A stretch of DNA of 64,000 bases from Candidatus Woesearchaeota archaeon. GTDB taxonomy: Archaea; Nanobdellota; Nanobdellia; Woesearchaeales; GW2011-AR4. Shown piece after piece: positions 7,820 through 53,437 of this stretch. The DNA is taken from contig JACPMX010000014.1 in the NCBI GenBank assembly GCA_016185755.1, positions 117,868 through 181,867 on the forward strand. Reading direction: 5' to 3'. The notes below the pieces were generated by a model that saw only the letters and a program-made list of their open reading frames with translations, had not been told where the DNA came from and did no database searches. Each line of letters starts with the position of its first letter. Position 1 is the first letter of the stretch. Made by a program: the position numbers and the translations under genes.

Positions 7820-7855
7820 ATAATTATTTATATTCACTCTTCAAGTAATTTATAA

Positions 7856-8080: not shown

Positions 8081-8377
8081 AATGGGAATTCTGATTGGAG
8101 TCCTGATAATTTCGCTGTCCGGGACTTCCAATTTGTTGTTTTTTCTTACAACTCCCAATTTTTCCAATTCGTTGTCAAGAATTCCCAACTCACTTGCGCT
8201 TTTCATGTGCAAATTAATGGCTTCTGCTATGTTCCCCTTTGCCTCCCTCAAAGTCTTTCCCTGAGTAACAATATTCAAATCCAGGCATTCTGCCATGTAA
8301 CCGCTTTTAGTCTTTTTAACTACAAATGGAACAGACAATTCTAAATTCTCGCTTTTGTAATTGGCATTTCTTTTCAT
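8075..8377 (-). CDS. hicB: HicB-family antitoxin (UPF0150 domain)
   Basis: 100 aa; SGYMAECLDLNIVTQGKTLREAKGNIAEAINLHM resembles the HicB N-domain. Convergent with hicA and overlaps it by 6 nt. Confidence 0.55.
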   Translation of the reverse strand: MKRNANYKSENLELSVPFVVKKTKSGYMAECLDLNIVTQGKTLREAKGNIAEAINLHMKSASELGILDNELEKLGVVRKNNKLEVPDSEIIRTPIRIPIL

Positions 8378-8379
8378 AG

Positions 8380-8511
8380 CTTATCTAAGGTAACTCCTTT
8401 ATATTTAAACTTTGTGGCATTTAATCCCCCTGTAAACAGCCAGTCCATGCCACCATCCTCTCTTGCAATGAATCCGTCAAGGCTGCACGCAATGAATAGC
8501 CTGATTTTTCT
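8380..8511 (-). pseudogene. N-terminal fragment of a RibD-C/dihydrofolate-reductase-family gene
   Basis: Minus-strand translation MRKIRLFIACSLDGFIAREDGGMDWLF... matches the start of DHFR/RibD C-terminal-domain proteins. It ends after about 44 codons, with its stop overlapping the hicB start. Confidence 0.3.
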
Positions 8512-8721
8512 CATGGCATTAGCATGGTAAGGCAGAATAAAAGATTATCGTGGCATATTTCAATAATTCCACAACCAGCGCAAATCTTTAAAGTCCTAAA
8601 AAATGCTTGGTATTTTTGGGAACTTGAACTCTGTTCAAGTATTTGCTGGGCTTTGAAAATTCTTTGAATTTTCAAAACCTTTATAAACATAATTTATCCC
8701 TCTTTCCAAAGGGGGTGTTTT

Positions 8722-10751: not shown

Positions 10752-11822
10752 ATGATCCAGAATAACATCGGAAGGAGAAAATCCCGCAAAGTAAAGGTCG
10801 GCAAACTGTTCATTGGCGGAGATGCTCCCATAACCATCCAGTCAATGACCACGACAGACACAACTGATGTAAAGGCAACAATTGAGCAGATTCATGGTTT
10901 GGAGGAAGTTGGATGCGACATCGTAAGGGTATCCGCTCCTACAATGGAGGCTGCAAAGGCGTTAAAGGAAATCAAGGAAAATATAAGCATTCCTCTTGTT
11001 GTTGACATTCATTTTGACTACAGGATTGCCCTTGAGGCTGTCAAGAATGTTGACAAGCTGAGGATTAACCCCGGCAATATTGGAAATCCTGACAAGGTGC
11101 AGCAGGTTGTAAAGGCGTGCAAAGATTTTCAAGTCCCGATGAGGATTGGAGTCAATCTGGGCTCTTTGGAAAGAGATTTGTTTGACAAATACGGCTATTC
11201 TTCGGAGGCAATGGTTGAAAGCGCAATGCGCCATGTGAAAATCCTTGAGGAGCTTGATTTTTATGACACGATCGTTTCTTTGAAAGCATCTGATGTGCCA
11301 AGAATGGTGAAGGCATACAAATTGTTTGCAGAAAAAACTGATTATCCCCTGCACCTTGGTGTTACAGAAGCAGGCTCAAAATTGCCAGGCGCCATAAAAT
11401 CATCTATGGGGATGGGAATGCTTTTGTCAGAAGGGATTGGAGACACTTTAAGGGTTTCATTGTCAGAGGATCCAAAAGAAGAAGTCAAGGTCGGAAAGCA
11501 AATTTTAAGGAGCCTTGGATTGAGGAATGATGGAGTGCAGGTCACATCCTGTCCAACGTGCGCAAGGACAGAGATAGATGTAATCAAGCTGGTCGAGCAG
11601 CTTGAGAACGCAACTGAAAAAATAAAAAAGCCGGTGCATGTCGCAATCATGGGCTGCGCAGTCAACGGGCCGGGGGAGTCAAGAAAATCAGACATCGGAA
11701 TTGTAGGCGCGCCAGGAAACCATCTGCTTTACAAAGACGGCAAGATTGTTAAGAGAATAAATGATGATGAAATTTACGAAGTTCTTTTGAAGGAGATTAA
11801 TGAGAAAGCAAATGAATCGTAA
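10752..11822 (+). CDS. ispG: 4-hydroxy-3-methylbut-2-enyl diphosphate synthase (GcpE)
   Basis: 356 aa; GcpE family with C-terminal Cys ligands (CPTCART, GCAVNGPGE). Confidence 0.9.
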   Translation: MIQNNIGRRKSRKVKVGKLFIGGDAPITIQSMTTTDTTDVKATIEQIHGLEEVGCDIVRVSAPTMEAAKALKEIKENISIPLVVDIHFDYRIALEAVKNVDKLRINPGNIGNPDKVQQVVKACKDFQVPMRIGVNLGSLERDLFDKYGYSSEAMVESAMRHVKILEELDFYDTIVSLKASDVPRMVKAYKLFAEKTDYPLHLGVTEAGSKLPGAIKSSMGMGMLLSEGIGDTLRVSLSEDPKEEVKVGKQILRSLGLRNDGVQVTSCPTCARTEIDVIKLVEQLENATEKIKKPVHVAIMGCAVNGPGESRKSDIGIVGAPGNHLLYKDGKIVKRINDDEIYEVLLKEINEKANES

Positions 11823-12519
11823 AATTATACTTTTTTTGATATTGACTGTTTTTTTGATAAATATTGGAAATTCATTCGCTAAATCAAACGAATATTATAC
11901 TTGCGAATATTTCAATTCTGGTTTATGTATAGAAGTTTGGTTTAATACATCAATAAGTAATTTAACTGATAAACCTAGCGAATATGGGAAATTTCCATAT
12001 TACACCCAACAAGGAGACTATTTGTATATAGAAAAATTCATCGCAATTAATCATGGGGAAAAAATAAATAGCAGCACTACTTATACTTTAGATATATGGC
12101 CATTAGAATACAAGGGCATGGATGAGAGATTAACAAAATATGGACCTTATACCAATAATTATGGTAAAATTGATATCGAAATTCCTCCTTTAGCTAAAGG
12201 AGACAAGTTTGAATTAGATTATTTACAAAATAGTGTTTATATCAAAAAATTAAATGATCAACCAATTGGTAAATATTCTCATTGGTTTATAGAACTTTAT
12301 AAAGAAGGAGAATGGTTCATCGACGAGGATATTGCAGGAGAAATTGGTGGATATACCTCTATTTTTAATGGATTTAGAAGTCGAATCTTTCAAGTCAACC
12401 CTCCATTAGAGTTAGAAACATTTAGCGATGTAAGAAAACAAGTTAAGTATATCCTTCCTACATTTTTAGTTTCTGTAATAAGTTTAATTGTTTCTATATA
12501 TAGTTTAAGAAGAAGATGA
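11800..12519 (+). CDS. Secreted or surface protein with N-terminal signal/TM and C-terminal TM anchor
   Basis: 239 aa; AT-rich codon usage clearly lower in GC than the flanking MEP genes; overlaps ispG by 23 nt. Confidence 0.45.
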   Translation: MRKQMNRKIILFLILTVFLINIGNSFAKSNEYYTCEYFNSGLCIEVWFNTSISNLTDKPSEYGKFPYYTQQGDYLYIEKFIAINHGEKINSSTTYTLDIWPLEYKGMDERLTKYGPYTNNYGKIDIEIPPLAKGDKFELDYLQNSVYIKKLNDQPIGKYSHWFIELYKEGEWFIDEDIAGEIGGYTSIFNGFRSRIFQVNPPLELETFSDVRKQVKYILPTFLVSVISLIVSIYSLRRR

Positions 12520-32424: not shown

Positions 32425-32913
32425 ATGTCGATAAAAATTTTAGTTACTGGCGGGACATTCGATAAAGAGTATAATGAGTTAGATGGGACTTTATTCTTTA
32501 AGGAAACGCATTTGGATTCAATGTTGAAAACTGCTAGAGCTAAACTTGATGTTAAAATAAGAACCGTAATGCTTATTGACAGTTTAGACATGACGGATTC
32601 TGATAGGAAACTTATTTTAGAAACTTGTAAAAAATCCATAGAAGACAAAATTCTAATAACACATGGAACCGATACTATGGTAGAAACTGCGCAAATTTTA
32701 GGAAAAAATATTGTGGACAAGACAATTGTACTAACAGGAGCTATGGTACCTTACATATTTAGAAGTTCTGATGGCTTATTTAATTTAGGCTGTGCATTGG
32801 CTTTTGTTCAGTCTTTGCCCAATGGTGTTTATATATCAATGAATGGAAAATATTTCCATTGGGATAATGTTAAAAAAATAAAAGAAATTGGAGAATTCAA
32901 AACAATTAAATAA
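32425..32913 (+). CDS. Stand-alone asparaginase N-domain-like protein
   Basis: 162 aa; LVTGGTFD and ITHGTDTM catalytic threonine motifs, no C-domain; AT-rich. Confidence 0.55.
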   Translation: MSIKILVTGGTFDKEYNELDGTLFFKETHLDSMLKTARAKLDVKIRTVMLIDSLDMTDSDRKLILETCKKSIEDKILITHGTDTMVETAQILGKNIVDKTIVLTGAMVPYIFRSSDGLFNLGCALAFVQSLPNGVYISMNGKYFHWDNVKKIKEIGEFKTIK

Positions 32914-37711: not shown

Positions 37712-38050
37712 ATGGAAGCTGCAGCAGAATCAAGGGAAGCTGAAATCCTTACAGAGATAAGAGAATCGGAAAAAAGGGCCGTGGAGATCATTGAAAAGGC
37801 CGGAAGGGAAAGCGAGTCGATAATGCAGGAAGCTGCAAGAAACTCGTCAAAATTATTGCCAGAAAAAGAAGCGGAAATAAGGAAATCCCAGGAAAAAAAG
37901 ATTATGGACTTCAGGGAAAAGGCCAGGCTCATAAGGGAAGAAAAACTGGCAGAGGGAAGGCTCGGCGTGAAGCAGCTGAAGGCAAAGGCCGAAAAAAACA
38001 TTCCAAAATCTGTTGAATTTATAATGAAAAAATTCGAGGAAGCGGTTTAA
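37712..38050 (+). CDS. atpH: A-type ATPase subunit H
   Basis: 112-aa coiled-coil protein heading the ATPase operon. Confidence 0.55.
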   Translation: MEAAAESREAEILTEIRESEKRAVEIIEKAGRESESIMQEAARNSSKLLPEKEAEIRKSQEKKIMDFREKARLIREEKLAEGRLGVKQLKAKAEKNIPKSVEFIMKKFEEAV

Positions 38051-38051
38051 A

Positions 38052-39887
38052 ATGCTGAAGCCCCAGGAGATGAGCAGTGTCATAATAACCGGCTCCAAAG
38101 CCATGCAGGAAGCTGTCATCAGGGAGCTCCACAGCATGAAAATAATCCATATTGTCGAGCACTCAAAAAGCGGGCTTGCCGATATAGGGGTTCCTCTTGA
38201 GAATGCAGCAAAACTCTCGGAAATTTTGGTCAGGATAAGGGCATTGTCAGCTGCATTGGGCATAAAAGGCGATAAAACAATGCTGGAAGCAAAAAGCATT
38301 CCTGAAATAGACTCAACGGCAAAAAAGATTGCCGAAGAGCTGGGCATATATACTGATGAATTGAAGAAAATTGATGAATTCTTATCCAAAAGCCAGGCAT
38401 CAAGGCGTGAGCTGGAAATCCTGAAAGGGATAAGCATTCCTCTCGAGTCTTTTGCAAGCTACAGGGCTCTGGCTTATTTTACAGGCTACATAAAATCCAG
38501 GGAAATAGGCTCCCTCAAGAAAGAGCTGCAGAAAACAACCCAAAAATTCATGCTGTTCGAAAGTGCAGATGGGGGCAAGGCGTTCATTGCACTGTTCATT
38601 GACGCAAAAAATAAAGAGGATGCAAACGGCACTTTGCAAAAACTCAATTTTTCAAGCGTCAGCTTTTCAAGCATACAGGGCCAAAAAGGAACTGCAGCCA
38701 AAAACCTGGAAAAGCTTGAGCAGGAAAGCACAAGGCTCCTCAAAAGGAAGGGTGAAATAAGAAAAAAAATCGAAAAGCTTGCAAAAGAGCACAGGGCATT
38801 TTTGGCAGCATCAGACGAATTTCTTGGCGAGCAGCTTGAAAAGGCAGAGGCCCCCTTGAAATTTGCATCAACGCCAAGCAGCTTTCTGATTAAAGGGTGG
38901 ATTCCCAGCAATGATATTAACAAGTCAATAGACAGGCTGAATAAAGCCGCAAAGAACAGGATTTTTGTCCATTTCGAGCCTGCAAAAAAGCATGACAAAG
39001 TGCCTGTCAAGCTGAAGAATCCCGCATACGCAAAGCCTTTTGAGTTCTTCCTTGACCTTTACAGCATACCCTCTTACAGGGAGATCGATCCTACTTTTTT
39101 TATATTCTTAACATTCCCGATTTTCTTTGGCATAATGCTCGGGGACATGGGGTACGGGGTTGTAAGCCTGGCAGCGTTCCTGCTCCTGAGGAGAAAAATG
39201 CCATCCACGAAAAATTTTTTCAACATATTGATTTTGGCGTCTCTTGTCACGGTATTGTTCGGCCTTTTCTTTGGGGAATTTTTCGGCTACGAATTCATGC
39301 ATCCTGTCATAAGCAGGGAGCATGAGATGTTCAAGCTGCTTTACTTTTCGATCGCAATTGGCGCAATACATGTAAATATCGGGCTTGTGCTTGGCTTCAT
39401 AAACGAGCTAAGGTCGCATGGATTTATGCATGCAATCTATGCCAAGGGAAGCTGGATTGTGCTTGAACTCGGGATAGCGCTTCTTGCGCTGGCGTATTTC
39501 AGGATAATATTAATTTCCCCGTTCATAGGGGCTGCATTCCTTGGGCTTTCAATTTTAATGCTGCTCAAGGGAGAAGGAGTGAAGGGGCTTATAGAGCTGC
39601 CAAGCATCCTGACCAATATAATGTCCTATGCAAGGCTGATGGCCATAGGCCTGTCATCTGTCATACTTGCCGTCATTGTAAACGAGCAGGCCGGCGAATT
39701 TTTCCACAAGGGCGGCTTCTTTGTTTTAATAGGGATAATCATACTGGTTACAGGACATGCGATAAACATAATGCTGGGGCTGCTGGGGGGCTTTTTGCAC
39801 TCGCTGAGGCTTCATTATGTTGAGTTTTTTTCAAAATTTTTCCATGGCGGTGCAAAGAAATACCTGCCGTTCGGATCAAAAGAATAA
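38052..39887 (+). CDS. atpI: A-type ATPase subunit I (a-subunit homologue)
   Basis: 611 aa; cytosolic N-domain plus C-terminal multi-TM domain. Confidence 0.85.
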   Translation: MLKPQEMSSVIITGSKAMQEAVIRELHSMKIIHIVEHSKSGLADIGVPLENAAKLSEILVRIRALSAALGIKGDKTMLEAKSIPEIDSTAKKIAEELGIYTDELKKIDEFLSKSQASRRELEILKGISIPLESFASYRALAYFTGYIKSREIGSLKKELQKTTQKFMLFESADGGKAFIALFIDAKNKEDANGTLQKLNFSSVSFSSIQGQKGTAAKNLEKLEQESTRLLKRKGEIRKKIEKLAKEHRAFLAASDEFLGEQLEKAEAPLKFASTPSSFLIKGWIPSNDINKSIDRLNKAAKNRIFVHFEPAKKHDKVPVKLKNPAYAKPFEFFLDLYSIPSYREIDPTFFIFLTFPIFFGIMLGDMGYGVVSLAAFLLLRRKMPSTKNFFNILILASLVTVLFGLFFGEFFGYEFMHPVISREHEMFKLLYFSIAIGAIHVNIGLVLGFINELRSHGFMHAIYAKGSWIVLELGIALLALAYFRIILISPFIGAAFLGLSILMLLKGEGVKGLIELPSILTNIMSYARLMAIGLSSVILAVIVNEQAGEFFHKGGFFVLIGIIILVTGHAINIMLGLLGGFLHSLRLHYVEFFSKFFHGGAKKYLPFGSKE

Positions 39888-39923
39888 CAAAACAAATTCA
39901 GGACATATTCAAAATAAAAAAAT

Positions 39924-40163
39924 TTGAAGGAGGAAAAAATGGCAATTGAGACTGGATTGATAGCGATTGGCTCTGGCCTTGCAATAGGCTTGAGCGCGAT
40001 AGCAGCGGCTATTGCTGAAAAGGAAATCGGAACAGCTGCTGTGGGTGCAATGGCTGAAAAGGAAGAACTGTTTGGAAAAGGGCTTATCCTTACGGTCATC
40101 CCCGAAACAATAGTCATATTCGGGCTGGTGGTCGCTATACTGATATTGAATTTGGCAAAATAA
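39924..40163 (+). CDS. atpK: A-type ATPase proteolipid subunit K (c)
   Basis: 79 aa, two TM hairpin with conserved Glu (IPETIVIFGL). Confidence 0.8.
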   Translation: MKEEKMAIETGLIAIGSGLAIGLSAIAAAIAEKEIGTAAVGAMAEKEELFGKGLILTVIPETIVIFGLVVAILILNLAK

Positions 40164-40174
40164 ATCAAGTCAAA

Positions 40175-40720
40175 ATGGGACTGGAAGCAGTAAAGGAGGA
40201 GATATTGGACAGTGCACGGGAGCAGGCGAACTCCATCCTTGCAGAGGCCCGTAAAGAGGCCAATAAAATATCGAAGGAAGCTGAAAAGAAAATCGATGGC
40301 ATGCAGCAGAAAGCCGATGCAGAGGAAAAGCGGATGATGGATGCAATAAAAAGGCAGGAGCTTGCATCCGCAGAGCTTGAAAACAAGAAGCTGCTTCTTG
40401 AGGCAAAGAAGCAGGTCATAGAAATTGCATTTGAAGAAGCAAGAAAAAGGCTGGAATCGCTTGACGACAAAAAAAGGGAGGAATATCTGAAAAAGCTGCT
40501 TGAAAAGGCAAAAAATGAGATTGAAGTTGCAAAGGTATACTGCAATAAAAAAGATGCAAAATTCGCAAAAGGGCTTGGCAACCAAGCAGCTGGCATGATC
40601 GGGGGCTTAATTGCCGAAAACAATGAAGGGACTATAAGGATTGACTACAGTTTCGAGACCATGCTGGATAGCATCAAGGAGACTGAATTGCAAAATATAA
40701 GCAAAATATTGTTTGGTTAA
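40175..40720 (+). CDS. atpE: A-type ATPase subunit E
   Basis: 181 aa; long N-terminal helix plus C-terminal globular domain. Confidence 0.75.
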   Translation: MGLEAVKEEILDSAREQANSILAEARKEANKISKEAEKKIDGMQQKADAEEKRMMDAIKRQELASAELENKKLLLEAKKQVIEIAFEEARKRLESLDDKKREEYLKKLLEKAKNEIEVAKVYCNKKDAKFAKGLGNQAAGMIGGLIAENNEGTIRIDYSFETMLDSIKETELQNISKILFG

Positions 40721-41792
40721 AATGATGAAGCTTGAAGAGCCGAAAAAACTGAAGCTTGGGACTTACCCTTACACTTATGTAAGGACTGCTGTAATGAAAT
40801 CCCTGCTCTTCAGAAGAGAAGACTACCACAAGATGCTGAAGATGGGCTTCAGCGAAATTGCAAAATTTTTGCAGGAATCAAATTACAGGAAGGAAATCAA
40901 TGAGCTTGCAAACGAGCATTCCGGAGCTGATCTGATTGAGCTTGCTCTCAACAAAAATCTTGCAGAATCATTCAAAAAGCTGCTGAGGATATCCCCGAAT
41001 GAGCTTTCATTGCTTATCCGGGAATATGTCAAGAGGAAGGACATAGAGGACATCAAGACCATAATAAGGGGCAGGTTCACAGGCACAGATAAAAAGATTG
41101 TTGCCGGGTCATTGACCGGTGCGGGCACTTTAAGCATGGAATTTCTTATGTCGCTTCTGGAAAAGGAATCTGTCGAGGAAATTTTGAAAGCCAGCAGGAT
41201 TGCTGATTTTTCCTTGTTCAGGAACCCTATAAAGGATTTCAATGAGAAAAAAAGCCTGGCAGGCATAGAAAATGCGCTTGACAAGTCCTATTACAGCCAT
41301 ATCATGCAGTTTTCAGGAATTTTGCCCAGGGAAGTGGCAATGTTCAAGAAATTCCTCCTGAAAGAAGTTGAAATACTTAACATGCTTACCCTGTTGAGGC
41401 TAAAAAAAGCAGGGCTCGGAAGGGAAGTTGCACTTAATCTTATAATACCCTCGGGAAACAAGCTGAAAGATGCAAAGATAGCCTCGCTGGCAGGCGCTAA
41501 TGGCATTGAAGAGATGTCAAAGCTGCTGCAAAGAACAGAATACAGGGGCATATTTTCAAGAGGCTTTGAAGAATTCAATAAAAGCAATTCCCTGATAGCG
41601 CTTGAGACGGAGCTTTACAAGCACCTGCTCAGGCAGTCCATCCTGCTGATGCACCAGCACCCATTGTCGGTTGATGTCATACTGGGATACATGTTTGCAA
41701 AAGAGACTGAAGCCAGGAACTTGAAAATAATTTTGAAGGGAAAGCAGCTTGGATTGGCCGAGGAGTTTATTGAAAGACAGCTGGTATTTTAA
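40713..41792 (+). CDS. atpC: A-type ATPase subunit C
   Basis: 359 aa helical protein; 8-nt overlap with atpE. Confidence 0.75.
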   Translation: MVKMMKLEEPKKLKLGTYPYTYVRTAVMKSLLFRREDYHKMLKMGFSEIAKFLQESNYRKEINELANEHSGADLIELALNKNLAESFKKLLRISPNELSLLIREYVKRKDIEDIKTIIRGRFTGTDKKIVAGSLTGAGTLSMEFLMSLLEKESVEEILKASRIADFSLFRNPIKDFNEKKSLAGIENALDKSYYSHIMQFSGILPREVAMFKKFLLKEVEILNMLTLLRLKKAGLGREVALNLIIPSGNKLKDAKIASLAGANGIEEMSKLLQRTEYRGIFSRGFEEFNKSNSLIALETELYKHLLRQSILLMHQHPLSVDVILGYMFAKETEARNLKIILKGKQLGLAEEFIERQLVF

Positions 41793-41896
41793 AACAAAGC
41801 AAGATAACAATAGACCATTAACAATGAACATTGGCAAAAAATCCAGTAATTAAAGCTTAAAAATAAAAATAAAATAAAAAAATTTAAAAAAACAAA

Positions 41897-42196
41897 ATGG
41901 TGAAAATTGCAGTAGCGGGCTCGAATGAATTTGTCGTGGGATTCCAATTGGCAGGCATAAGGGACATCCTGGAGCTGAAAGGGGATTATTTCAATGAGCT
42001 TAAGGGCATGAAAAGCAGGAAGGATATCGGCGTTGTGGTTGTTGATGAAAAGATGATGGAAAGCCTTGAAACCCACCAGAGGCTTGAGATAGAGGATTCT
42101 GTGGATCCGGTTTTCATACCGGTATCTACAAAAACAGAGCAGGACAGCCTGAAAAGGCTCATCAAAAAATCAATAGGTGTTGATTTGTGGAAGTGA
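41897..42196 (+). CDS. atpF: A-type ATPase subunit F
   Basis: 99 aa, [21 protein letters not shown]. Confidence 0.75.
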
Positions 42197-43926
42197 ACAA
42201 AATGGAAAAAGGAGTTTTATTCAGGATTGCAGGGCCTGTTGTAGTTGCAAAAGGCATCAAGCCCAGAATGTATGATGTCTGCAGGGTTGGTAATGAAAGC
42301 CTCATGGGGGAAGTTATACAGCTTGATGGCGACAAAGTCATAATACAGGTTTATGAGGACACTTCAGGAATAAAGCCGGGTGAGCCGGTTGTCAACACAG
42401 GAGAGCCGCTGAAAGTGGAGCTTGGCCCCGGAATGCTCGGAAGCATTTATGACGGGATCCAAAGGCCTTTGCCTGTCCTGATAAAGCAGATGGGCGATTT
42501 CATCAAGAGGGGAGTTGACGCTCCCGGCCTTGACCAGGCAAAAAAATGGGACTTCAAGGCTATTGTAAAAAATGGAGAAAATGTTTCTGCCGGCCAGGCT
42601 ATTGGGGAAGTCGAGGAAAACCCGGGAATTATCCACAGGATAATGATTCCGCCCAATCAAAAAGGAAAAATAGCGGAAATAAAATCCGGCAAGTTCACAG
42701 TCAATGATACCATAGGAAAGCTGGACAACGGCTTTGAATTAAGGCTGAAGCACAATTGGCCTGTCAGGATTGCACGGCCTGTTAATGCAAAACTGAAGCC
42801 TGAAGCCCCGCTGATCACCGGCCAGAGAATTTTTGATGCATTGTTTCCTTTGGCCAAAGGGGGAGTTGCTGCAATCCCTGGCCCCTTCGGAGCAGGAAAA
42901 ACAGTCTCGCAGCAGCAGCTTGCAAAATGGTCGGACGCTGACATAATCGTATATGTCGGCTGCGGGGAAAGGGGCAATGAAATGACAGAAGTGCTTACAG
43001 AATTTCCGCAGCTTACAGACCCAAGAAGCGGCAAGCCGCTCATGAACCGGACTGTGCTGATTGCAAACACATCAAACATGCCAGTGGCTGCAAGGGAAGC
43101 CAGCATCTACACTGGAATTACAATTGCAGAATATTACAGGGACATGGGCTACTCAGTTGCCTTGATGGCTGATTCCACATCAAGATGGGCAGAAGCGATG
43201 AGGGAAATATCCTCAAGGCTGGAAGAAATGCCGGGCGAAGAAGGCTATCCTGCTTACCTGTCGACAAGGCTTGCGCAATTTTATGAAAGGGCAGGCAGGG
43301 TCATTCCGCTTGGGACAAAGAAGGAAGCCAGCATAAGCGTGATTGGCGCAGTAAGCCCTCCCGGGGGAGACATATCCGAGCCTGTATCCCAGTCTACTTT
43401 AAGGGTGACAAAGGTTTACTGGAAGCTTGATGCCAAATTAGCCCAAAGAAGGCATTTTCCGTCAATAAACTGGCTTGATTCATATTCCAACTATTTGGAG
43501 ATATTGGAGCCGTGGTACTCAAAGAATGTTGCTCCTGACTGGAACAATTTGGTGAAAGAGATTATGTCAATCCTTCAGGAGGAGGACAAGCTGCTTGAGA
43601 TCGTCCAGCTTGTCGGCTCCGACGCGCTGGCGGAAAGGCAGCAGGTCACCCTGCAGACCGCAAGGCTCATAAGGGAAGTTTTATTGCAGCAGAATGCATT
43701 CCACGAGATAGACACTTTCTGCGAGTCAAAGAAAACTTATGCCATAATGAAGGCAATACTGCAATTTTCAAGGCTTGCAAATTCCGCCCTTGACAGCGGT
43801 GCGAGGGTGCAGCAGATCCTCTCAACAAAGGCAAAGGACAGGCTCAGCGAGGTCAAATTCGTGAAGGAGTATGAAAAGCTGCTTGGCGACATAACAGGGC
43901 AGATGGAAAAGGAGATGAAGGTTTAA
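42187..43926 (+). CDS. atpA: A-type ATPase catalytic subunit A
   Basis: 579 aa; P-loop GPFGAGKT and non-homologous region typical of A subunits. Confidence 0.9.
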
Positions 43927-43927
43927 A

Positions 43928-44644
43928 ATGAAAGATAAAAAAGTTTTGATTGTTCAGAATGTTTCCCATGAAAGTCCCGGCTTAATTGGAGAGATTTTAA
44001 ATGACAATGGAATTGATTTTGAGGCTGTTGACTTAAACAACGAAGACGATTTTCCAAATCCCATAAATTATTCTGCAGTTTTCGTTTTTGGAGGTCCAAA
44101 TAGCGCTAATGATCCAACATCCAAAATGAAAAATGAATTGGAAATAATAAAACAGGCTTTAGCTAACAACATTCCTTATTTTGGAATTTGCTTAGGGATG
44201 CAAACTGTAGTAAAAGCGGCAGGCGGCGAGGTGCATAGGAATAACGTCAAGGAAATAGGTTTTAAGGATCCTGAGGGGAAAATTTTTGAAATAGAACTAA
44301 CAAGTGAAGGGAGTAAAGATGCCCTATTCAATGGAATTAAATCGCCAATGAAAATATTTCATCTGCATGGAGAAACTGTTAAATTAACTCCAAAAATGAG
44401 ATTATTGGCAACAGGAAAATATTGTCAAAATCAGGTTGTAAAAGTTGGAGACGATGCATACGGATTTCAAGGGCACCTTGAAGTGACGGAGTCATTACTA
44501 AAGGAATGGGTAAAAAAAGATAATGATTTGAAATTAATGGATTCAAATTCTTTGATAAAAGATTACGGAACATTAAAATCAGAATATCAACAAAACAGTA
44601 AAACAATAATAAATAATTTTTTGCAAATTGCAGGACTAATATAA
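43928..44644 (+). CDS. Class I glutamine amidotransferase-like protein, inserted between atpA and atpB
   Basis: 238 aa; GICLGMQ nucleophile elbow, downstream His (FQGHLE). Start lies 1 nt after the atpA stop and its stop 1 nt before atpB; more AT-rich than neighbours. Confidence 0.7.
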
Positions 44645-44645
44645 A

Positions 44646-46013
44646 ATGAAGGAATACAAGACAATAACAAGGGTCGCCGGGCCTCTGATTTTCGTCGAGA
44701 AGACGGAACCCATAGGATATGCCGACATTGTAAGGATAGCTATGCCGAACGGCGATGTTAAAAACGGGCAGGTTCTGGACACTAGCAACGACATAGTGGT
44801 TGTGCAGGTGTTTGAAGGGACAGCCGGAATTGATGTTGATACAAGAGTCAAGTTCCTGGGCGACACATTAAAGCTGAATGTCTCAAAAGACATGCTCGGC
44901 AGGATTTTAAGCGGATCAGGAAAGCCCATAGACAAGGGGCCGGAAATCATCCCGGAAAAAAGGTTGGATATTATCGGTGCTGCAATCAACCCGTTCGCAA
45001 GAGCTTCTCCGCATGATTTCATACAGACAGGAATATCAACGATAGACGCGATGAATACCCTTGTCCGCGGGCAGAAGCTTCCATTGTTTTCCGGCTCAGG
45101 CTTGCCGCATAATGAAATTGCTCTGCAGATAGCTCGTCAGGCAAAAGTCATTGGAAAGCAGGAAAACTTTGTTGTTGTTTTTGCTGCAATGGGCATAACA
45201 AATGAAGAGGCGCAGTACTTCATCAGTGATTTTGAGCAGACAGGCGCATTGGAAAGAAGCGTCGTTTTCCTCAATCTTGCAAATGACCCTGCAGTTGAAA
45301 GGCTTGTCACTCCAAGGATGGCATTGACAGCTGCCGAATATTTCGCATACGAGCATGACGCCCATGTTCTTGTTATTTTGACGGACATGACAAACTATTG
45401 CGAGTCGCTGAGGGAGATAGGCGCTGCAAGGGAAGAGATCCCGGGAAGAAGAGGGTATCCCGGCTACATGTACACTGACCTTGCAATGATTTATGAAAGG
45501 GCCGGAGTCATAAAAGGAAAGAAGGGAAGCGTCACCCAGATCCCAATTTTAACAATGGTAGGCGATGACATAACCCATCCAATCCCGGATTTGACGGGCT
45601 ACATTACAGAGGGCCAGATTGTCCTGGCAAGGGAACTGCACAGAAAAGGAATCTATCCTAGCATTGATGTACTTCCCTCATTGTCAAGGCTGATGAACCT
45701 TGGCATAGGGCCGGCAAGGACAAGGGACGATCACAAGCAAGTCTCGGACCAGATGTACGCAGCTTATGCAGAAGGCCGTGACTTGAGAGGGCTTGTCGCA
45801 ATTGTAGGGGAAGAGGCGCTGAGCGAGCGCGACAAGAGGCTTCTGAAATTCGCCGCAGAATTCGAGGACAAGTTTGTAAGGCAGAAAAAAGATGAGAACA
45901 GGAGCATTGCAGAGACTCTCGATCTTTGCTGGAGCCTGCTTGGATTGCTGCCGTCAAATGAGCTGACAAGGATAAGCCCGGAACTCAGGCAGAAATATCA
46001 CAGGCAGAAATAA
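44646..46013 (+). CDS. atpB: A-type ATPase subunit B
   Basis: 455 aa regulatory subunit. Confidence 0.9.
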
Positions 46014-46062
46014 ATTTTTTAGCTGTTTTAAATTAATATAAATGTTAATGCAATAAATAAAA

Positions 46063-46680
46063 ATGCCCCAAGACATAAAGCCCACAAGAAGCGAATTGCT
46101 GAAGGTCAAGAAGCAGATAAAGTTGGCTAAAAGCGGGTACAGCCTGCTGAAGAAGAAAAGAGACGGCTTGATCCTGGAATTCTTTGAAATCCTGAAGAAG
46201 GCAAAAACTTTGAGGGAAGAGATTGTCAGTGAGTACAAAACTGCGCTTGAAAAAATCAATATTGCAAGGGCGCTTGAAGGGGACTTGAAAATAAGGTCAT
46301 TGGCAATGGCCATAAGGGAAATTCCTGACCTTAAAATGGCCACAAAAAACATAATGGGCGTAAAAGTCCCTAAGATAGAGCCCGCTGAAATAAAAAAGGC
46401 GTTCATGGAAAGGGGCTACAGCGTCTACAGCCCCTCTTCAATTGACGAGGCTGCCGCGGCATACGAGAAAGTCGTGGAAAAGGTGCTGATTGCAGCAGAG
46501 GTAGAGACATCAATGAGGAAGCTGCTCAACGAGATAGAGAAGACAAAAAGAAGGGTCAATGCTTTGGAATTTGTCGTCATCCCGAATCTTGACAAGGTGA
46601 GGTCATTTATCCAGCTGAGGCTGGAGGAGATCGAAAGGGAAAACATCTTCAGGATGAAGAGGATAAAGGCCAAGGCATGA
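46063..46680 (+). CDS. atpD: A-type ATPase subunit D (central stalk)
   Basis: 205 aa, MPQDIKPTRSELLKVKKQIKLAKSGYSLLKKKRD. Confidence 0.85.
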   Translation: MPQDIKPTRSELLKVKKQIKLAKSGYSLLKKKRDGLILEFFEILKKAKTLREEIVSEYKTALEKINIARALEGDLKIRSLAMAIREIPDLKMATKNIMGVKVPKIEPAEIKKAFMERGYSVYSPSSIDEAAAAYEKVVEKVLIAAEVETSMRKLLNEIEKTKRRVNALEFVVIPNLDKVRSFIQLRLEEIERENIFRMKRIKAKA

Positions 46681-46827: not shown

Positions 46828-48780
46828 ATGCTTGAATATGTTATTGGAGTCGGCATATCTTCCTTGCTTGCTGCAGTGTTGTTTTCATTCTATATCCTTA
46901 AAAAGCCAACTGGAACAGCCAAAATGCAGGAAATTTCCGAGGCAATACACAAGGGTGCACTTACCTTCTTAAGAAAAGAGTATGAAGTCATAGCAGTTTT
47001 TATTGCTGTTGTGGCATTGATAATGTATGTATTCCTTGAGAACGGCCACAGGCTTGCGGTATCTTTCATCATGGGCGGATTTGCGTCTGCGCTGGCCGGC
47101 AACCTTGGAATGAGGATATCAACAAAATCGAATGCAAGGGCGGCAGAGGCAACAAAATCCCATATAGGGGATGGCCTGAAAGTTGCCTTCTATTCCGGCG
47201 CCGTAATGGGCTTAAGCGTTGTAGGAATAGGCTTGCTCGGAGTTTCAATTTTGTATTTGGTTTTTGACGATCCGAGTATAATATACGGCTTTGGGTTCGG
47301 GGCCTCCTCAATTGCCCTGTTTGCAAGGGTTGGCGGCGGAATTTATACAAAAGCAGCCGATGTCGGAAGTGATTTGGTCGGCAAGGTTGAAAAAGGAATT
47401 CCCGAAGACGACCCAAGAAACCCTGCAGTCATAGCAGACAATGTAGGCGACAATGTGGGGGATGTTGCAGGCATGGGCGCCGACCTCTTTGAAAGCTATG
47501 TGAACAGCATAATAGCGGCAATGGTGATCGGGCTTGTCTTAAGCCAAGGCCACTTAATTTTTCCGCTGGGCCTTGCAGCGTCAGGTATTTTGGCGTCAAT
47601 AATCGGCATGTTTTTTGTAAAGGCAAAGGATGAGAAACATCTTTTTAGGGCATTGAACACAGGTCTGTATACAAGCACAGTTTTGGCTGCGATATTCGCA
47701 TTTATTCTTGTCAAGCACCAGGATCTTGGCATCGGAGTTTTCTACGCAACCTTGTCCGGGTTGATTGTAGGTGTTGTAATAGGCTGGATTACGGAATATT
47801 ACACATCGAACCGCAACAGGCCGACACAAAGCATAGCAATAGCTGCAAAAACAGGGGCTGGAACAAATGTGATACAGGGGCTTGCTGTCGGCATGCTTTC
47901 TACATTAATTCCGGTTGTTTCGGTTTCGATGGCGGTTCTTGTCGCTTACAAGTTTGCTGGTCTTTACGGGATTGCAATTGCAGGAGTGGGCATGCTCACA
48001 ACCCTTGGATTTACTTTGGCAATTGAAACTTATGGCGCTGTTGCCGACAATGCGGCAGGAATTTCGGAAATGGCCGACGTTGGAAAAGATGTGAGGAAAA
48101 AAACCGAAATGCTTGATGCAGTAGGCAACACGACAGCTGCAATAGGGAAAGGATTTGCAATGGGCAGCGCTGCATTGACTGCTCTTGCTCTTTTTGCCAG
48201 CTTCACCCAGATCACGAAAATTGAGGTCATAAGCATTTCAGACCCCAATGTAATTTTTGGGTTATTCATAGGCGGAATGCTTCCTTTCCTGTTCAGCTCT
48301 TTTGCAATGCAGGCTGTCGGAAAAGCGGCGTCAGAGATAGTTGAGGAAGTAAGAAGGCAGTGGAAATCCATAAAAGGATTGGCGCAGGGAAAAGCAAAGC
48401 CTGACTATGAGAAATGCATCGCAATAAGCACCAGAAGCGCCTTGAAGCAGATGACAATTCCTTCCATTCTTGCAATTCTTGCTCCGATACTGATTGGATA
48501 TTTATTCGGTCTCGAAGCCCTTGGAGGCCTGCTTGTCGGCTCGATTGTATCGGGATTTTCGCTTGCGGTTTTCATGGCCAACTCCGGAGGAGCATGGGAC
48601 AATGCGAAGAAATACATAGAGGCTGGAAACCTTGGTGGCAAAGGAAGTTACGCCCACAAGGCCGCTGTTGTAGGAGACACAGTTGGGGACCCGTTCAAGG
48701 ACACAGCAGGGCCTTCATTGAACATATTAATCAAGCTGATGTCCATTGTTGCGATTGTGTTTGTGCCGCTGATTTTATAA
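46828..48780 (+). CDS. hppA: Membrane-bound H+/Na+-translocating pyrophosphatase, predicted K+-dependent type
   Basis: 650 aa; [10 protein letters not shown] motif (Ala at the K+-dependence position); DVGADL and DNVGDNVGD motifs. Confidence 0.9.
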
Positions 48781-48816: not shown

Positions 48817-50001
48817 ATGCACAAGTTCTTCACCCTCAAGGATTTGGACGTTTCTGGCAAAAGGGTTCTTGTAAGGGTTGATTTTAATGTTCCATTGGAC
48901 AAGAAGACAAATGATGTTGCAGATGACAAGAGAATAAGGGAAAGCCTGCCCACTATAAACTACCTTATTGAAAATCATGCAAAAATAATTCTCTGCTCTC
49001 ATCTTGGCAGGCCTGATGGGAAAGTTGTTGAATCATTGAAGATGGATAAAGTTGCGGAAAGGCTGGGCAGGCTATTGAACAAAAAAATTAAAAAACTGGA
49101 TGACTGCGTTGGAGAAGAAGTTAAAAAAGAGATTATGAGAATGAAAGAAACCGATGTTATCCTTCTTGAGAACTTGAGGTTTCATCCTGAAGAGGAAGCA
49201 AACGATGAAAACTTCTCAAAACAATTGGCTGATTTGGCCGACCTGTATGTAAATGACGCATTTGGAACATGCCATCGTGCCCATGCATCAACATATGGAG
49301 CTGCAAAATACCTGAAATCAGCTGCAGGCTTCCTTGTGGAAAAGGAGATCAGGATAATGGGCAAGGCTATGGAATCTCCTGAAAGGCCTTTTGTCGGCAT
49401 TCTTGGAGGGGTGAAAATTTCGGACAAGATAAAAGTTATAGAGAATCTGCTGTCAAAAGTCGATTTCCTGCTTTTAGGCGGCGCAATGATTTTCACCTTC
49501 TACAAGGCCCAGGGAAAAAATATCGGAGCTTCAAAATTCGACGAGCATGGCATTGATCTTGCGAAAAAACTGCTGCAAAACAAAAAAATAATTCTGCCGG
49601 TTGACATAGTCATTGCAGACAAGTTTGAGGCCAACGCCGAGTCAAAGATCACCGATGTCGATGGCATGCCGGATGATTGGCTTGGGCTTGACATAGGCCC
49701 TAGAACAATCGAGAATTATAAAAAAATCCTGAAGAATGCAAAGACAGTTGTGTGGAACGGCCCCATGGGCGTTTTTGAATTTGACAAATTTGCTAATGGA
49801 ACAAGAGAGACAGCAAAATTTTTATCCGCTTTAAATGCAACAGTAATTATCGGAGGAGGCGATTCTGCGGCAGCTGTCGAGAAATTCGGATACGCAGGCA
49901 AATTAACCCATGTAAGCACGGGAGGGGGAGCATCTTTGGAATTCTTTGAAGGGAAAAAATTGCCGGGTATAGCGGCCTTGGAAGAGAGCTTTAAGCGGTA
50001 A
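48817..50001 (+). CDS. pgk: Phosphoglycerate kinase
   Basis: 394 aa; N-terminus RVDFNVP and C-terminus GGGAS motifs. Confidence 0.9.
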   Translation: MHKFFTLKDLDVSGKRVLVRVDFNVPLDKKTNDVADDKRIRESLPTINYLIENHAKIILCSHLGRPDGKVVESLKMDKVAERLGRLLNKKIKKLDDCVGEEVKKEIMRMKETDVILLENLRFHPEEEANDENFSKQLADLADLYVNDAFGTCHRAHASTYGAAKYLKSAAGFLVEKEIRIMGKAMESPERPFVGILGGVKISDKIKVIENLLSKVDFLLLGGAMIFTFYKAQGKNIGASKFDEHGIDLAKKLLQNKKIILPVDIVIADKFEANAESKITDVDGMPDDWLGLDIGPRTIENYKKILKNAKTVVWNGPMGVFEFDKFANGTRETAKFLSALNATVIIGGGDSAAAVEKFGYAGKLTHVSTGGGASLEFFEGKKLPGIAALEESFKR

Positions 50002-51280
50002 TCTCAATTTCATCACCTGATATCTGCAGCACAGCCTCCTTTATCTCGCCTTTAAGGCCTGAAATTGCATTGCTTATCTTGGCATCTTCGCTCTTCAGCT
50101 TGGCCAGCTCTTCATTGTTCTTCTCTATCCTGATATTGAGCTCTTCAAGCTGCCTGTTGAAATTCCTGAATTTTTCAGGCACCCCGGAAGATTTTATTTT
50201 GGATTCTATCTCTTCCATCCCTGACTTGTGCGAAAAATATTTTTTAAGGAACTGCTCCAGGAACTCCTTGCTTAATTTCCTGATTTCCTCTATTGATCTT
50301 TCCTTTTTCTTCTCGTCAATCTGCAGCTGGTTATCGTTCAGCGCCTTTTCAAGGTTTTTCAATATGTCTGCTATTGCAAGGTTCTTGTCATCCGCAAGAG
50401 TCTCTATGGGGTGCTTCAGGTAATCCAGTACAATTTCCTCGTGCTCAAAAGCAATATGGGAATATTTCCTCAGTGGCCTTTCAAGAACCGAAAAGCTCTG
50501 CAGAATCTGGTTTTCATCATTGTAGAATTCCGTTTCCTTGTTCTTCCTTTCCTCAATGAGCATGGCAAAATTGCCGTGCTCTCCGCTTTTGGTGAAGCTC
50601 TCTATGCCGGCCATTATGGAATCTTTTTCTTTTATTGCAAGGATCACTGACGCTTCAGCGCTTTTTAGGTCCATATCCAGGTTTATCCTCTGCTTTTCCT
50701 TTGCCTTCAGGCTTTGTATTTTAGCTCTTGTGCTGTTGACAGATACCATTTTTTCATCATTCAATGCAGACTTGAGCTCGGCAAAAAGCCTGTCAAAATT
50801 CCTTAAATTCTGCGCTATATTCCCGGTTTCATTGGCGAAAAATTCCTGCAGTATGGTATAGCTTCTCAATGTCCCCTTGTTAAGGTCGTTGAGCAGCTCG
50901 TCAAACTGCTTTGTGAAGTCAAGAAGGTAAAAATAATCTTTGTTGTTTATCTCCATGTGCCCCAGGAACGAATTGACAGCCCTTATGTACGCTTTCCTGT
51001 TGCCTTCCATGTACTGCTTTGCCTTGAAAGGTATGTTTGGGTTCTGCAGCTTCGCATTTTCCAAAGCTTCGATGTTGAACCTCGCCCTTTGAAGCTCCTC
51101 GCCAACCTTCATGAGGATCTCTCCAGTATGCTGCTTTACATCTTCCATCATGGGCTTTGCCTTCTCATTGAGCCACTCCTCGAGGTTCTGCAGGCTTACA
51201 TCTGTTGATTTCTTCATCTCCTGCTCCCCATTTTTGAATATTTTTTTGATGAACTCAAGCATTTTAATCGTATTTGACAC
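49991..51280 (-). CDS. Coiled-coil hypothetical protein
   Basis: 429 aa, heptad-rich throughout. Confidence 0.5.
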   Translation of the reverse strand: MSNTIKMLEFIKKIFKNGEQEMKKSTDVSLQNLEEWLNEKAKPMMEDVKQHTGEILMKVGEELQRARFNIEALENAKLQNPNIPFKAKQYMEGNRKAYIRAVNSFLGHMEINNKDYFYLLDFTKQFDELLNDLNKGTLRSYTILQEFFANETGNIAQNLRNFDRLFAELKSALNDEKMVSVNSTRAKIQSLKAKEKQRINLDMDLKSAEASVILAIKEKDSIMAGIESFTKSGEHGNFAMLIEERKNKETEFYNDENQILQSFSVLERPLRKYSHIAFEHEEIVLDYLKHPIETLADDKNLAIADILKNLEKALNDNQLQIDEKKKERSIEEIRKLSKEFLEQFLKKYFSHKSGMEEIESKIKSSGVPEKFRNFNRQLEELNIRIEKNNEELAKLKSEDAKISNAISGLKGEIKEAVLQISGDEIEITA

Positions 51281-51358: not shown

Positions 51359-53437
51359 TTGTTGATGTTCCTAAGCATTGTTATTGTTATAAGTGTTTTG
51401 GCATTGCTGTTTGCAGGCTATCTGGCAAGAGGAGTTCTTAGGAGAGATACCGGAACAGCTGCAATGCAGGAAGTTTCTAATGCAATCAAGATAGGCGCAG
51501 AGGCATTCCTGAAAAGGCAGTACACCACAATAGCGATAATGTCGGCAGCCCTTGCTGTCATCATATATGCCGCTTATGCGTTATTTGGCAATCCGGGCCT
51601 TGGATGGCGCACATCAGTCTCATTTGTCTTTGGAGCAATCAGCTCGGGAATCGCAGGCATTGTGGGCATGTGGATTTCAATAAGGACAAACATCAGGACT
51701 GCAAGCGCTGCAAGAAAAAGCATGAATGACGCTTTTGTAACAGCGTTCAGGGGAGGGGCGGTTTCCGGCATCGTGATAGTTGCGATGTCATTGCTTGGAG
51801 TCGCGCTGATATATTATGTGTTCAGCATCGGCGTTGATCCTAAGGAAGTTCCTTTCCTGATTGTAGGATATGGATTTGGAGCTTCATTTGTAGCTTTGTT
51901 CGCCCAGCTTGGCGGCGGAATTTATACAAAAGCAGCCGATGTCGGAAGTGATTTAGTCGGCAAGATTGAAAAAGGAATTCCCGAAGACGACCCAAGAAAC
52001 CCGGCAGTCATAGCAGACCTTGTCGGAGACAATGTGGGGGATTGTGCTGGCAGGGGCGCTGACCTATTCGAAAGCACAGCTGCTGAAAATATAGGTGCAA
52101 TGATACTTGGTGTTGCCCTCTATCCCATTTTCGGAGTAAAAGGAGTTATGTTCCCTCTTGTTGTAAGGGCATTTGGGCTTGTAGCAACAATAATCGGAAT
52201 AATGACCGTCAAGCTCAGAAACGAAAATGAAAACCCGATGACAGCATTGAACAGGGGATACTACATAACCAGCTTCCTTGCAGCAATTGTATTTTACTTC
52301 ACTACAAAATGGCTTCTCCCAGGCACGGGAAACTGGTTTTTCTTTGCCGGCTTGGTTGGGCTGGCAACGAGCATTTTGATTGTGTGGATAACAGTTTATT
52401 ATACTGAATCAGACCCGTTCTTTTTTAAAAACAGCCCTGTAAGAAAAATTGCAAAAGCATCATTGACAGGTCATGCAACCAACATAATTTCAGGATTTGC
52501 AGTAGCAATGGAAGCAACTGTGCTGCCCGTGATTGTCTTATCATTGGCGCTTCTTTCCTCGTACAAGCTCGGATTGATGAGCGGCGTTGCGCATGGCGGC
52601 TTATACGGAACTGCAATCGCAACAATGGGAATGCTTGCAACAGCAGCTTACATCCTTGCAATGGACAATTTCGGCCCGATAACAGACAATGCCGGCGGAA
52701 TTGCCGTTATGGGCGGGGCTCCAAATGAGGTAAGGAAAAGAACAGACAAGCTTGATGCTGTCGGCAACACAACAAAGGCATTGACAAAAGGCTATGCCAT
52801 AGGAAGCGCCGCATTAGCTGCATTCCTGCTGTTCTCAGCCTATCTTGATGACGTTGCAAAGCATATTGGGGTAAAGGTTGTTTCAGTTGACATTGCAAAA
52901 ATTGATGTATTTGTAGGGGCTTTGATAGGCGCAATGCTTATTTTCCTTTTCAGCGCGTTTGCCATAAGGGCTGTGGGAGACACAGCTTACTCAATAGTAA
53001 ATGAAGTAAGAAGGCAGTGGAAAGCCAAAAAAGGGATAATGACCGGCAAGGAAAAGCCCGACTATGCAAGAGTTGTTGACATTTGCGTCAAGGCTTCTCT
53101 CAAGGAGATGGTTTTGCCCGGATTGGTTGTTGTTGCGGTCACAGTAATTGTTGGAGTTGTCTTGGGATATGAAGCTGCAGCTGCATTTTTGATGGTTGCC
53201 ACAATCACAGGCATTTTGATGGCCCTTCTTCTTAACACAGGCGGAGGAGCATGGGACAATGCGAAGAAGCTCATTGAGGAAGGCGAGCACGGCGGAAAAG
53301 GTTCAGATGCGCACAAGGCAGCTGTCACAGGCGACACAATCGGAGACCCTTTCAAGGACACTGCAGGGCCTTCATTGCACGTTTTGATTAAGCTGTTGAG
53401 CACTATAACTTTGGTTCTTGTGCCGCTGTTTGTGTGA
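51359..53437 (+). CDS. hppA: Membrane-bound pyrophosphatase paralogue, predicted K+-independent type
   Basis: 692 aa; GNTTKALTKG (Lys at the K+-dependence position). Confidence 0.9.
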   Translation: MLMFLSIVIVISVLALLFAGYLARGVLRRDTGTAAMQEVSNAIKIGAEAFLKRQYTTIAIMSAALAVIIYAAYALFGNPGLGWRTSVSFVFGAISSGIAGIVGMWISIRTNIRTASAARKSMNDAFVTAFRGGAVSGIVIVAMSLLGVALIYYVFSIGVDPKEVPFLIVGYGFGASFVALFAQLGGGIYTKAADVGSDLVGKIEKGIPEDDPRNPAVIADLVGDNVGDCAGRGADLFESTAAENIGAMILGVALYPIFGVKGVMFPLVVRAFGLVATIIGIMTVKLRNENENPMTALNRGYYITSFLAAIVFYFTTKWLLPGTGNWFFFAGLVGLATSILIVWITVYYTESDPFFFKNSPVRKIAKASLTGHATNIISGFAVAMEATVLPVIVLSLALLSSYKLGLMSGVAHGGLYGTAIATMGMLATAAYILAMDNFGPITDNAGGIAVMGGAPNEVRKRTDKLDAVGNTTKALTKGYAIGSAALAAFLLFSAYLDDVAKHIGVKVVSVDIAKIDVFVGALIGAMLIFLFSAFAIRAVGDTAYSIVNEVRRQWKAKKGIMTGKEKPDYARVVDICVKASLKEMVLPGLVVVAVTVIVGVVLGYEAAAAFLMVATITGILMALLLNTGGGAWDNAKKLIEEGEHGGKGSDAHKAAVTGDTIGDPFKDTAGPSLHVLIKLLSTITLVLVPLFV

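Follow-up and report, generated by a model that had tools for sequence, protein, structure and literature searches.

Why does a gene for a glutamine amidotransferase (GATase) stand between atpA and atpB, the genes for two subunits of an archaeal A/V-type ATPase? The question is raised by a 64,000-nucleotide stretch of DNA from a Candidatus Woesearchaeota archaeon (assembly GCA_016185755.1, contig JACPMX010000014.1), hereafter the window. A preliminary description of this DNA had noticed the gene and proposed for its product a possible role tied to the ATPase. Our reading, which we hold with a probability of about 0.6, is that the gene would encode a stand-alone glutaminase or gamma-glutamyl hydrolase that was acquired horizontally and is expressed along with the ATPase without being a subunit or an obligate partner of it. 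The position of the gene is unusual yet locally conserved.

An intact gene within the atp operon

The open reading frame (ORF) is complete, and the spacing first described was borne out: a single A separates the stop codon from the next ATG at both junctions, each of which reads TAA-A-ATGAA (Table 1). The atpA-GATase-atpB junction is identical in six independent assemblies from separate sequencing runs (L001–L006), and the same gene order is present in several Woesearchaeota metagenome-assembled genomes. As the six assemblies agree across both junctions and the 64-kb window holds one copy of the gene, an assembly artefact or duplication, which had been named as a possible undoing of the observation, is ruled out. 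The exact protein is listed at NCBI as 'type 1 glutamine amidotransferase [Candidatus Woesearchaeota archaeon]'.

Placement of the type seen in translational coupling, as originally described, was found in every carrier looked at, the GATase gene and atpB either overlapping by ATGA or lying 0, 1, 2 or 6 nt apart. From this spacing we infer co-transcription with the atp genes; the gene has no evident promoter of its own and is presumably transcribed along with the operon. A scan for promoters and terminators gave no excess over shuffled sequences, with a consensus that is bacterial and ill-suited to archaea. Close spacing is insufficient to show that the protein is 'stoichiometrically co-translated' with the ATPase, as had been stated.

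The repeat TAAAATGAA, found at both junctions of the GATase gene, was considered as a target-site duplication, a reading we did not adopt. HEPN, atpB and GATase genes found in atpA-atpB gaps all start with ATGAA(A/G)GA after a stop codon, so that the TAAAATGAA repeat is equally well explained by a shared junction style.

The product is a class I triad glutamine amidotransferase

By profile, G-x-C-x-G nucleophile elbow, His-x-Glu motif and alpha/beta fold, the protein belongs to the class I triad superfamily. A Pfam search returned PF00117 (E 5.7e-22, 78.8 bits against a cut-off of 22.8, residues 30–190) and PF07722 (Peptidase C26, 31.3 bits against a cut-off of 20.5) only, the latter as a partial match near the nucleophile, of residues 69–110 to positions 93–134 of a 219-position profile. 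In an alignment of 41 homologues (50–92% identical), Cys88, His183 and Glu185 are invariant, so the protein, first noted for its Cys elbow and a downstream His, keeps the full Cys-His-Glu triad. Likewise invariant are G55-G56 and S59-A-N-D62 (GGP...SAND), G86, G90, Q92, C166 and part of the HLHGET motif.

The fold family has been known since 2003. The AlphaFold2 (AF2) model of the protein (pLDDT 95.5, pTM 0.92) gave 182 Foldseek matches in the PDB at E <= 1e-3 (top E 3.7e-20), and the best 50 of these 182 are GATases and related gamma-glutamyl hydrolases. At the top are the stand-alone GATases 3m3p, TM1158 (1o1y), SMU.1228c (3l7n) and DnfC (8khs), with a TM-score (TMq) of 0.84, followed by MsGATase and the plant gamma-glutamyl peptidase GGP1. 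A profile search of PDB sequences returned the same order (1o1y at E 7.5e-30), and the TM1158 sequence aligns with the protein across the His-x-Glu region. A chaperone or protease of the DJ-1/PfpI type, as once suggested, was rejected: neither Pfam family found is of that kind, and no DJ-1/PfpI chain is among the best 50 of the 182 structural matches.

Placement below the superfamily level is less firm. The NCBIfam equivalogs of stand-alone GATases are related families to which the protein does not belong, with scores below their cut-offs for PRK06490 (127.9 against 339), PRK07053 (107.3 against 250) and PRK08250 (103.3 against 301). The models of GMP synthase subunit A were also below cut-off (PRK00758, 53.5 against 198; TIGR00888, 62.5 against 172), and the PADLOC defence-system models did not match. 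On balance we lean, with some reserve, towards placing the protein in the TM1158/DnfC-like branch of the class I GATases, as an enzyme that stands alone.

TM1158, 3m3p and SMU.1228c are structural-genomics GATases of ~230–250 aa that have the same fold as the window protein (root-mean-square deviation 2.3–2.7) and, like it, lack a fused synthase domain. Their fold alignments span 240–247 columns and reach through the C-terminal region; 1o1y aligns over residues 4–200, including the nucleophile and His-x-Glu motifs. Identity to the window protein is only 23–24%, however, TM1158 lacks Cys166, and these proteins have no known function and, unlike the window GATase, no known link to an ATPase operon. 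The C-terminal helical extension of the window protein (~residues 188–234) is a feature of the stand-alone TM1158/3m3p/DnfC group. The archaeal GMP synthase subunit A (GuaAA; 2lxn, 1wl8) has the class I core in common with it, but GuaAA chains are ~188 aa long, against 238 aa here, and no guaAB gene adjoins the window gene.

The characterised members of this structural neighbourhood are hydrolases of gamma-glutamyl amide bonds. DnfC, from the dirammox cluster of Alcaligenes, is 26% identical to the window protein and reportedly acts as a hydrolase on both glutamine and gamma-glutamyl hydroxamate (PMC11440038); it acts within the dnfABC nitrogen-oxidation cluster, whereas no dnfA- or dnfB-like gene lies near the window gene. 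In plant GGP1 (9k7i-l) and in PuuD/SpuA (Peptidase C26), the triad GATase fold serves purely as a gamma-glutamyl hydrolase, although both are more distant from the window protein (17–19% identity, TM-score 0.58–0.79). GGP1 cleaves gamma-glutamyl bonds, hydrolysing glutathione and its conjugates (PMC12958103).

Most related ATPase operons lack the gene

Of the closest homologues, those tested occupy the atpA-atpB gap in other Woesearchaeota assemblies: P0002 is 92% identical, P0003 86%, P0004 75%, P0010 71%, P0009 70% and P0021 61%. Carriers of this arrangement are L007, L008, L010, L014–L016, L024, L027, L092, L113, L141, L155, L159 and L172–L175. A reverse survey with the window atpB yielded 80 metagenome loci (81–96% identical), with 59 distinct operons containing atpA, atpB and atpD. 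A subunit or an obligate factor would be expected wherever a closely related ATPase operon occurs; the GATase was present in the A-B gap of 6 of the 59 operons and absent from the other 53. The arrangement recurs in several Woesearchaeota lineages; a survey of other atp operons for it had been suggested.

In more distant relatives, atpA and atpB overlap by 4 nt or are spaced by 1–16 nt, which makes their adjacency ancestral and the GATase gene an insertion, as had been proposed. The GATase-free loci L094 and L121 have a direct atpA-atpB junction, ...TTTAA-A-ATGAA(A/G)GAATA, of the same form as the junction in the window. That the gene can be lost is indicated by L130, in which a decayed GATase remains between atpA and atpB (~2394–2771): a 103-aa ORF with the Cys elbow, missing ~the first 48 residues and residues ~110–198, and hence without His and Glu. 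N-terminal, middle and C-terminal hidden Markov models (HMMs) detected no GATase relics in the 50–480-nt atpA-atpB spacers of non-carriers. These spacers scored at most 4.9 bits and shuffled spacers reached 7.7–13.8, so they are not callable as deletion scars, and L130 holds the only real relic.

The family as a whole is mostly found elsewhere. Its alignment was scanned against 185,579 species genomes and gave 80 loci with a homologue, which adjoins atp genes in six (L012, L014, L015, L016, L024, L027) and lies away from them in 74. The latter include Methanolobus, Methanomethylovorans, Methanofastidiosum, Aenigmatarchaeota, Iainarchaeum, other Woesearchaeota, Chlorobi, Ignavibacteria, Omnitrophota and Peribacteria, among others. 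A location elsewhere in relatives had been named as a finding that would speak against the significance of the insertion; this does hold outside the clade. Clustering of the neighbours over the 80 genome loci revealed lineage-specific synteny only, with no shared functional partner, and neither the window nor the 80 loci contain a conserved synthase-like neighbour. A family that is patchy over both domains and nevertheless ~50% identical fits the horizontal transfer of a self-sufficient enzyme.

Reading of the sequences around the non-atp loci suggests dipeptidase, macro-domain, GNAT, photolyase, RidA-like and Trk-type proteins as neighbours. In further DPANN contexts it suggests unrelated genes, for undecaprenyl-diphosphate-synthase-, methyltransferase-, phosphomannomutase- and dehydrogenase-like proteins.

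The insertion is old and its product is under selection

The GATase protein is under purifying selection. The ratio of nonsynonymous to synonymous substitution rates (dN/dS) is 0.115 and 0.173, at dS 0.33 and 0.43, against the 92% and 86% identical relatives, and 0.09–0.27 over all 21 pairs. Its maintenance by selection indicates that the cell benefits from the enzyme.

Between the main carrier lineages dS exceeds 1 and is saturated, atpB third positions are just 45–61% identical and the GATases of carriers are 55–92% identical; the saturation and the low GATase identity argue that the insertion is old. The gene is indeed AT-rich, with GC 0.331 and a third-position GC content (GC3) of 0.256 against GC 0.486 and GC3 0.53–0.54 for atpA and atpB, and a mean GC3 of 0.467 (sd 0.094, n=61) for the ORFs of the window. 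The view that this composition betrays a late arrival did not hold, because in 14 of 16 carrier loci, regardless of genome GC, the GATase has a lower GC3 than the atp genes beside it (the L130 relic is one of the two exceptions), and low GC3 is thus a lasting property of the gene. It probably results from weaker codon selection than on atpA and atpB.

The atp-linked GATases group together in a neighbour-joining (NJ) tree of the family, suggesting one origin. Carriers are interspersed with non-carriers in the weakly resolved atpA+atpB tree, and GATase identity does not track atpA/atpB identity (Spearman 0.17–0.19, not significant): between the window and L092, atpB is 96%, atpA 92% and GATase only 55% identical. 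Repeated loss, gene exchange by recombination through the conserved flanks, or both, are possible.

Other genes in the atp junctions

The atpA-atpB junction is unusually permissive for insertions in this Woesearchaeota group. Counted by locus, duplicates included, gaps of at least 300 nt occur at the A-B junction in 30 of 91 loci and at the B-D junction in 20 of 72, and almost never at other atp junctions. HEPN/HepT and MNT (nucleotidyltransferase) genes, of toxin-antitoxin type, lie upstream or downstream of the GATase according to lineage (Table 1). The MNT of L007 matches PADLOC candidate-system models (PDC-S09, E 8e-12). In the same locus, a mini-ORF (6714–6746, MKEFKIINLP*) overlaps the GATase stop and resembles the start of atpB (MKEYKTIT...); it looks like a duplicated, decayed 5' end of atpB left by the HepT-MNT insertion. 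L016 has a truncated HEPN start 3' of atpA.

Most B-D inserts encode LCIB-type beta-carbonic-anhydrase-like proteins, and a Na+/H+ exchanger and an ion channel were also found there. Those of L093, L100 and L123 have no Pfam match and seem, by eye, to contain a Cys...His-x-x-Cys-Gly-Ala motif. In L015, a second c/K proteolipid subunit gene (7109–7336, 84% identical to the window K) lies between atpB and the carbonic-anhydrase-like gene, and the locus also keeps a K gene at its normal place.

Table 1 Features of the window and of related loci (coordinates are those of the window or of the locus named)
Locus	Feature	Coordinates	Strand	Details
Window	Whole atp operon	37712–46680	+	order H-I-K-E-C-F-A-[GATase]-B-D
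Window	atpH	start 37712	+	ORF
Window	atpI	start 38052	+	ORF
Window	atpK	start 39924	+	ORF
Window	atpE	start 40175	+	ORF
Window	atpC	start 40713	+	ORF
Window	atpF	start 41897	+	ORF
Window	atpA	42187–43926	+	catalytic subunit A of A/V-type ATPase, 579 aa, no intein; PF00006, PF16886, PF22919, PF02874
Window	atpA/GATase junction	43924–43930	+	TAA-A-ATG; GAAGGT immediately 5' of atpA stop
Window	GATase ORF	43928–44644	+	238 aa, ATG start, TAA stop; stand-alone class I (triad) glutamine amidotransferase-fold gene
Window	Cys88 nucleophile codon	44189–44191	+	within GICLGMQ, residues 86–92
Window	His183-Leu184-Glu185 codons	44474–44482	+	complete triad; His183 44474–44476, Glu185 44480–44482; motif GHLE
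Window	GATase/atpB junction	44642–44648	+	TAA-A-ATG
Window	atpB	44646–46013	+	subunit B of A/V-type ATPase, 455 aa; PF00006, PF22919, PF02874
Window	atpD	46063–46680	+	Pfam
Window	H+-pyrophosphatase	46828–48780	+	directly 3' of atpD; PF03030, E 1e-267
L008	A-B gap: HEPN gene, GATase	HEPN 5211–5534
L007	A-B gap: GATase, HepT + MNT	toxin-antitoxin 6755–7556
L016	A-B gap: HepT + MNT, GATase	toxin-antitoxin ~4164–4995
L155	A-B gap: HepT + MNT, GATase
L113	A-B gap: HepT + MNT, GATase, second HEPN + nucleotidyltransferase pair	~2785–3598, ~4308–4963
L141	A-B gap: HepT fragment, MNT, small membrane protein, GATase, 310-aa unknown	toxin-antitoxin 1651–2300
L159	A-B gap: as L141
L015	B-D gap: LCIB-type insert	7692–8441		PF18599, E 4e-53
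L111	B-D gap: LCIB-type insert	6371–7114		PF18599
L157	B-D gap: LCIB-type insert	6382–7155		PF18599
L092	B-D gap: weaker LCIB-type insert	6392–7303		PF18599 weak
L096	B-D gap: weaker LCIB-type insert	6389–7186
L144	B-D gap: weaker LCIB-type insert	6464–7624		PF18599 weak
L097	B-D gap: Na+/H+ exchanger	6387–7544		PF00999, E 7e-73
L010	B-D gap: ion-channel gene	8593–9387		PF00520/PF07885

Surroundings of the gene in the window and its relatives

All nine subunit genes of the canonical archaeal A1AO ATPase operon (H-I-K-E-C-F-A-B-D) are present in the window in their usual order; subunits I, C, F, A, B and D were assigned by Pfam, and H, K and E via the annotated relatives L007 and L010. The window differs from the canonical operon by the added enzyme gene between A and B, and its relatives by further genes in the A-B and B-D junctions. 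Of 41 related loci that extend far enough, 28 have an H+-pyrophosphatase gene 3' of atpD; in the window this gene is followed by a phosphoglycerate kinase gene. The window contains two H+-pyrophosphatase paralogues within 5 kb (46828–48780 and 51359–53437), which are 47% identical. A Lys/Glu-rich ORF of 429 aa on the minus strand, without a Pfam match, occupies positions 49991–51280 between the phosphoglycerate kinase gene and the second pyrophosphatase gene.

In several relatives the atpA gene is interrupted, by ~1.4 kb in L098, L099, L117 and L129 and by ~0.4–0.5 kb in L120 and L130; L024 has a 772-aa atpA ORF. The extra sequence sits between parts that align up to ~241–268 and from ~211–233 of the window atpA, and looks like inteins of differing sizes.

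Elsewhere in the window, a 239-aa ORF (11800–12519) without a Pfam match has the lowest GC3 (0.20) and shares ~20 nt with the end of the gene for GcpE (ispG). In tblastn it weakly matches (27% over 107 aa, E 4e-5) the L144 protein that resembles carbonic anhydrases. A 162-aa ORF (32425–32913) consists of an N-terminal asparaginase domain only (PF00710, E 7e-26) and, at GC3 0.25, is very low, as is the GATase.

Weighing the explanations

If the protein works as its family does, Cys88, activated by His183 and Glu185, would attack the gamma-amide of glutamine or of another gamma-glutamyl compound; ammonia or an amine would then depart, and hydrolysis of the gamma-glutamyl thioester would yield glutamate. 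The enzyme would probably serve in the salvage of glutamine or gamma-glutamyl compounds with release of ammonia. As for its history, the ancestor of one Woesearchaeota subclade may have gained the gene horizontally, in the permissive atpA-atpB junction. There it would borrow the strongly expressed atp operon for its own expression, with junctions that maintain the translational coupling of atpB, and most close relatives would have lost the gene or never gained it. Several points weigh against this reading of a self-sufficient, acquired hydrolase. That the position is the same across lineages whose GATases are only 55–75% identical might be due to selection for expressing the enzyme together with the ATPase and not to mere tolerance, and the LCIB-type carbonic-anhydrase-like, Na+/H+ exchanger and ion-channel inserts suggest a functional theme rather than random cargo. 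The missed NCBIfam equivalog cut-offs (at best 127.9 against 339) leave the subfamily assignment loose, and in the weakly resolved NJ trees a single gain followed by losses is inseparable from exchange between lineages.

The idea of such a theme can be carried further, to a module for pH and ion homeostasis in which ammonia from a glutaminase takes up cytoplasmic protons and the enzyme is purposely co-expressed with the proton-pumping A-type ATPase and the H+-pyrophosphatase. The carbonic-anhydrase-like, exchanger and channel genes of relatives would share that purpose. Glutaminase-based acid resistance exists in E. coli (YbaS/GlsA), the atpB-atpD gaps of relatives hold PF18599 genes (L015, and weakly L092 and L144), a Na+/H+ exchanger (L097) and an ion channel (L010), and the H+-pyrophosphatase both follows atpD in most related loci and is doubled in the window. 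We nevertheless regard this module as unlikely. Carriers and non-carriers of the GATase do not differ significantly in how often they have atpB-atpD insertions (3 of 6 and 14 of 53, respectively; Fisher p 0.34), toxin-antitoxin genes unrelated to pH also occupy the atpA-atpB gap, and outside the clade the family has no link to ion transport save apparent Trk-type potassium-uptake genes beside it in L030, L033, L044 and L059. That the whole operon has grown into a pH/ion homeostasis super-operon, with the GATase selected at the A-B position for that purpose, is similarly doubtful; if true, it would let fermentative, respiration-less cells buffer their cytoplasm and keep the membrane energised. 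Many class I GATases need a partner to work, and the protein might instead be the glutaminase subunit of a two-part amidotransferase whose synthase partner, for example GMP synthase subunit B, is encoded elsewhere in the genome, its atp location being incidental. Several homologues are named 'GMP synthase-like glutamine amidotransferase' in their sources, and the NCBIfam models guaA_Nterm and GMP synthase subunit A match the window protein weakly (E 3e-17 and 2e-14). These scores fall far under the GuaA cut-offs, though, no synthase-like neighbour is conserved in the 80 genome loci, and the protein has the C-terminal helical extension of the stand-alone group, which sets it apart from the ~188-residue archaeal GuaA subunit A; we find this explanation a little harder still to credit.

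The gene might also be neutral or selfish cargo, without function for its host and persisting only because its excision risks disturbing atpB expression. Such cargo would suit a gap shared with toxin-antitoxin modules, the patchiness among close relatives and the atypically low GC3. It sits badly with strong purifying selection and a triad invariant across more than 40% divergence, and the clean atpA-atpB junctions of interspersed relatives indicate that absence is tolerated; we therefore consider it very improbable. Least probable of all is a regulator or assembly factor that binds or modifies the A3B3 head, which is close to the role first proposed for the protein. The gene is placed tightly and exactly between the genes of two head subunits in more than 12 lineages. 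Against this stand the 53 of 59 relatives that manage without it despite atpB proteins 81–96% identical, the decaying copy in L130, the family members away from atp genes in Methanolobus, Methanomethylovorans, Chlorobi, Omnitrophota, Peribacteria and others, and a divergence that does not track that of atpA and atpB. The fold, moreover, is that of an ordinary triad GATase and not of DJ-1/PfpI, and the toxin-antitoxin genes in the same gap likewise tell against a role tied to the head.

Implications

As an enzyme the GATase is unremarkable and its type is annotated already, so its presence does not change the view of the ATPase. In full-text literature searches we found neither this arrangement nor variable junctions of the atp operon described for Woesearchaeota or DPANN. 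Within a single DPANN lineage, enzyme, toxin-antitoxin, carbonic-anhydrase-like and transporter genes repeatedly lie in the atpA-atpB and atpB-atpD junctions, which are rigid elsewhere; the case illustrates clearly how a core operon with high expression can serve as a site where genes land and are expressed. GATases of the stand-alone, TM1158-like kind form a widespread and strongly conserved family (~50% identity between archaea and bacteria) that is uncharacterised. A clade in which such an enzyme is locked to an energy-conserving operon offers a testable physiological context for it, in ammonia release and proton balance.

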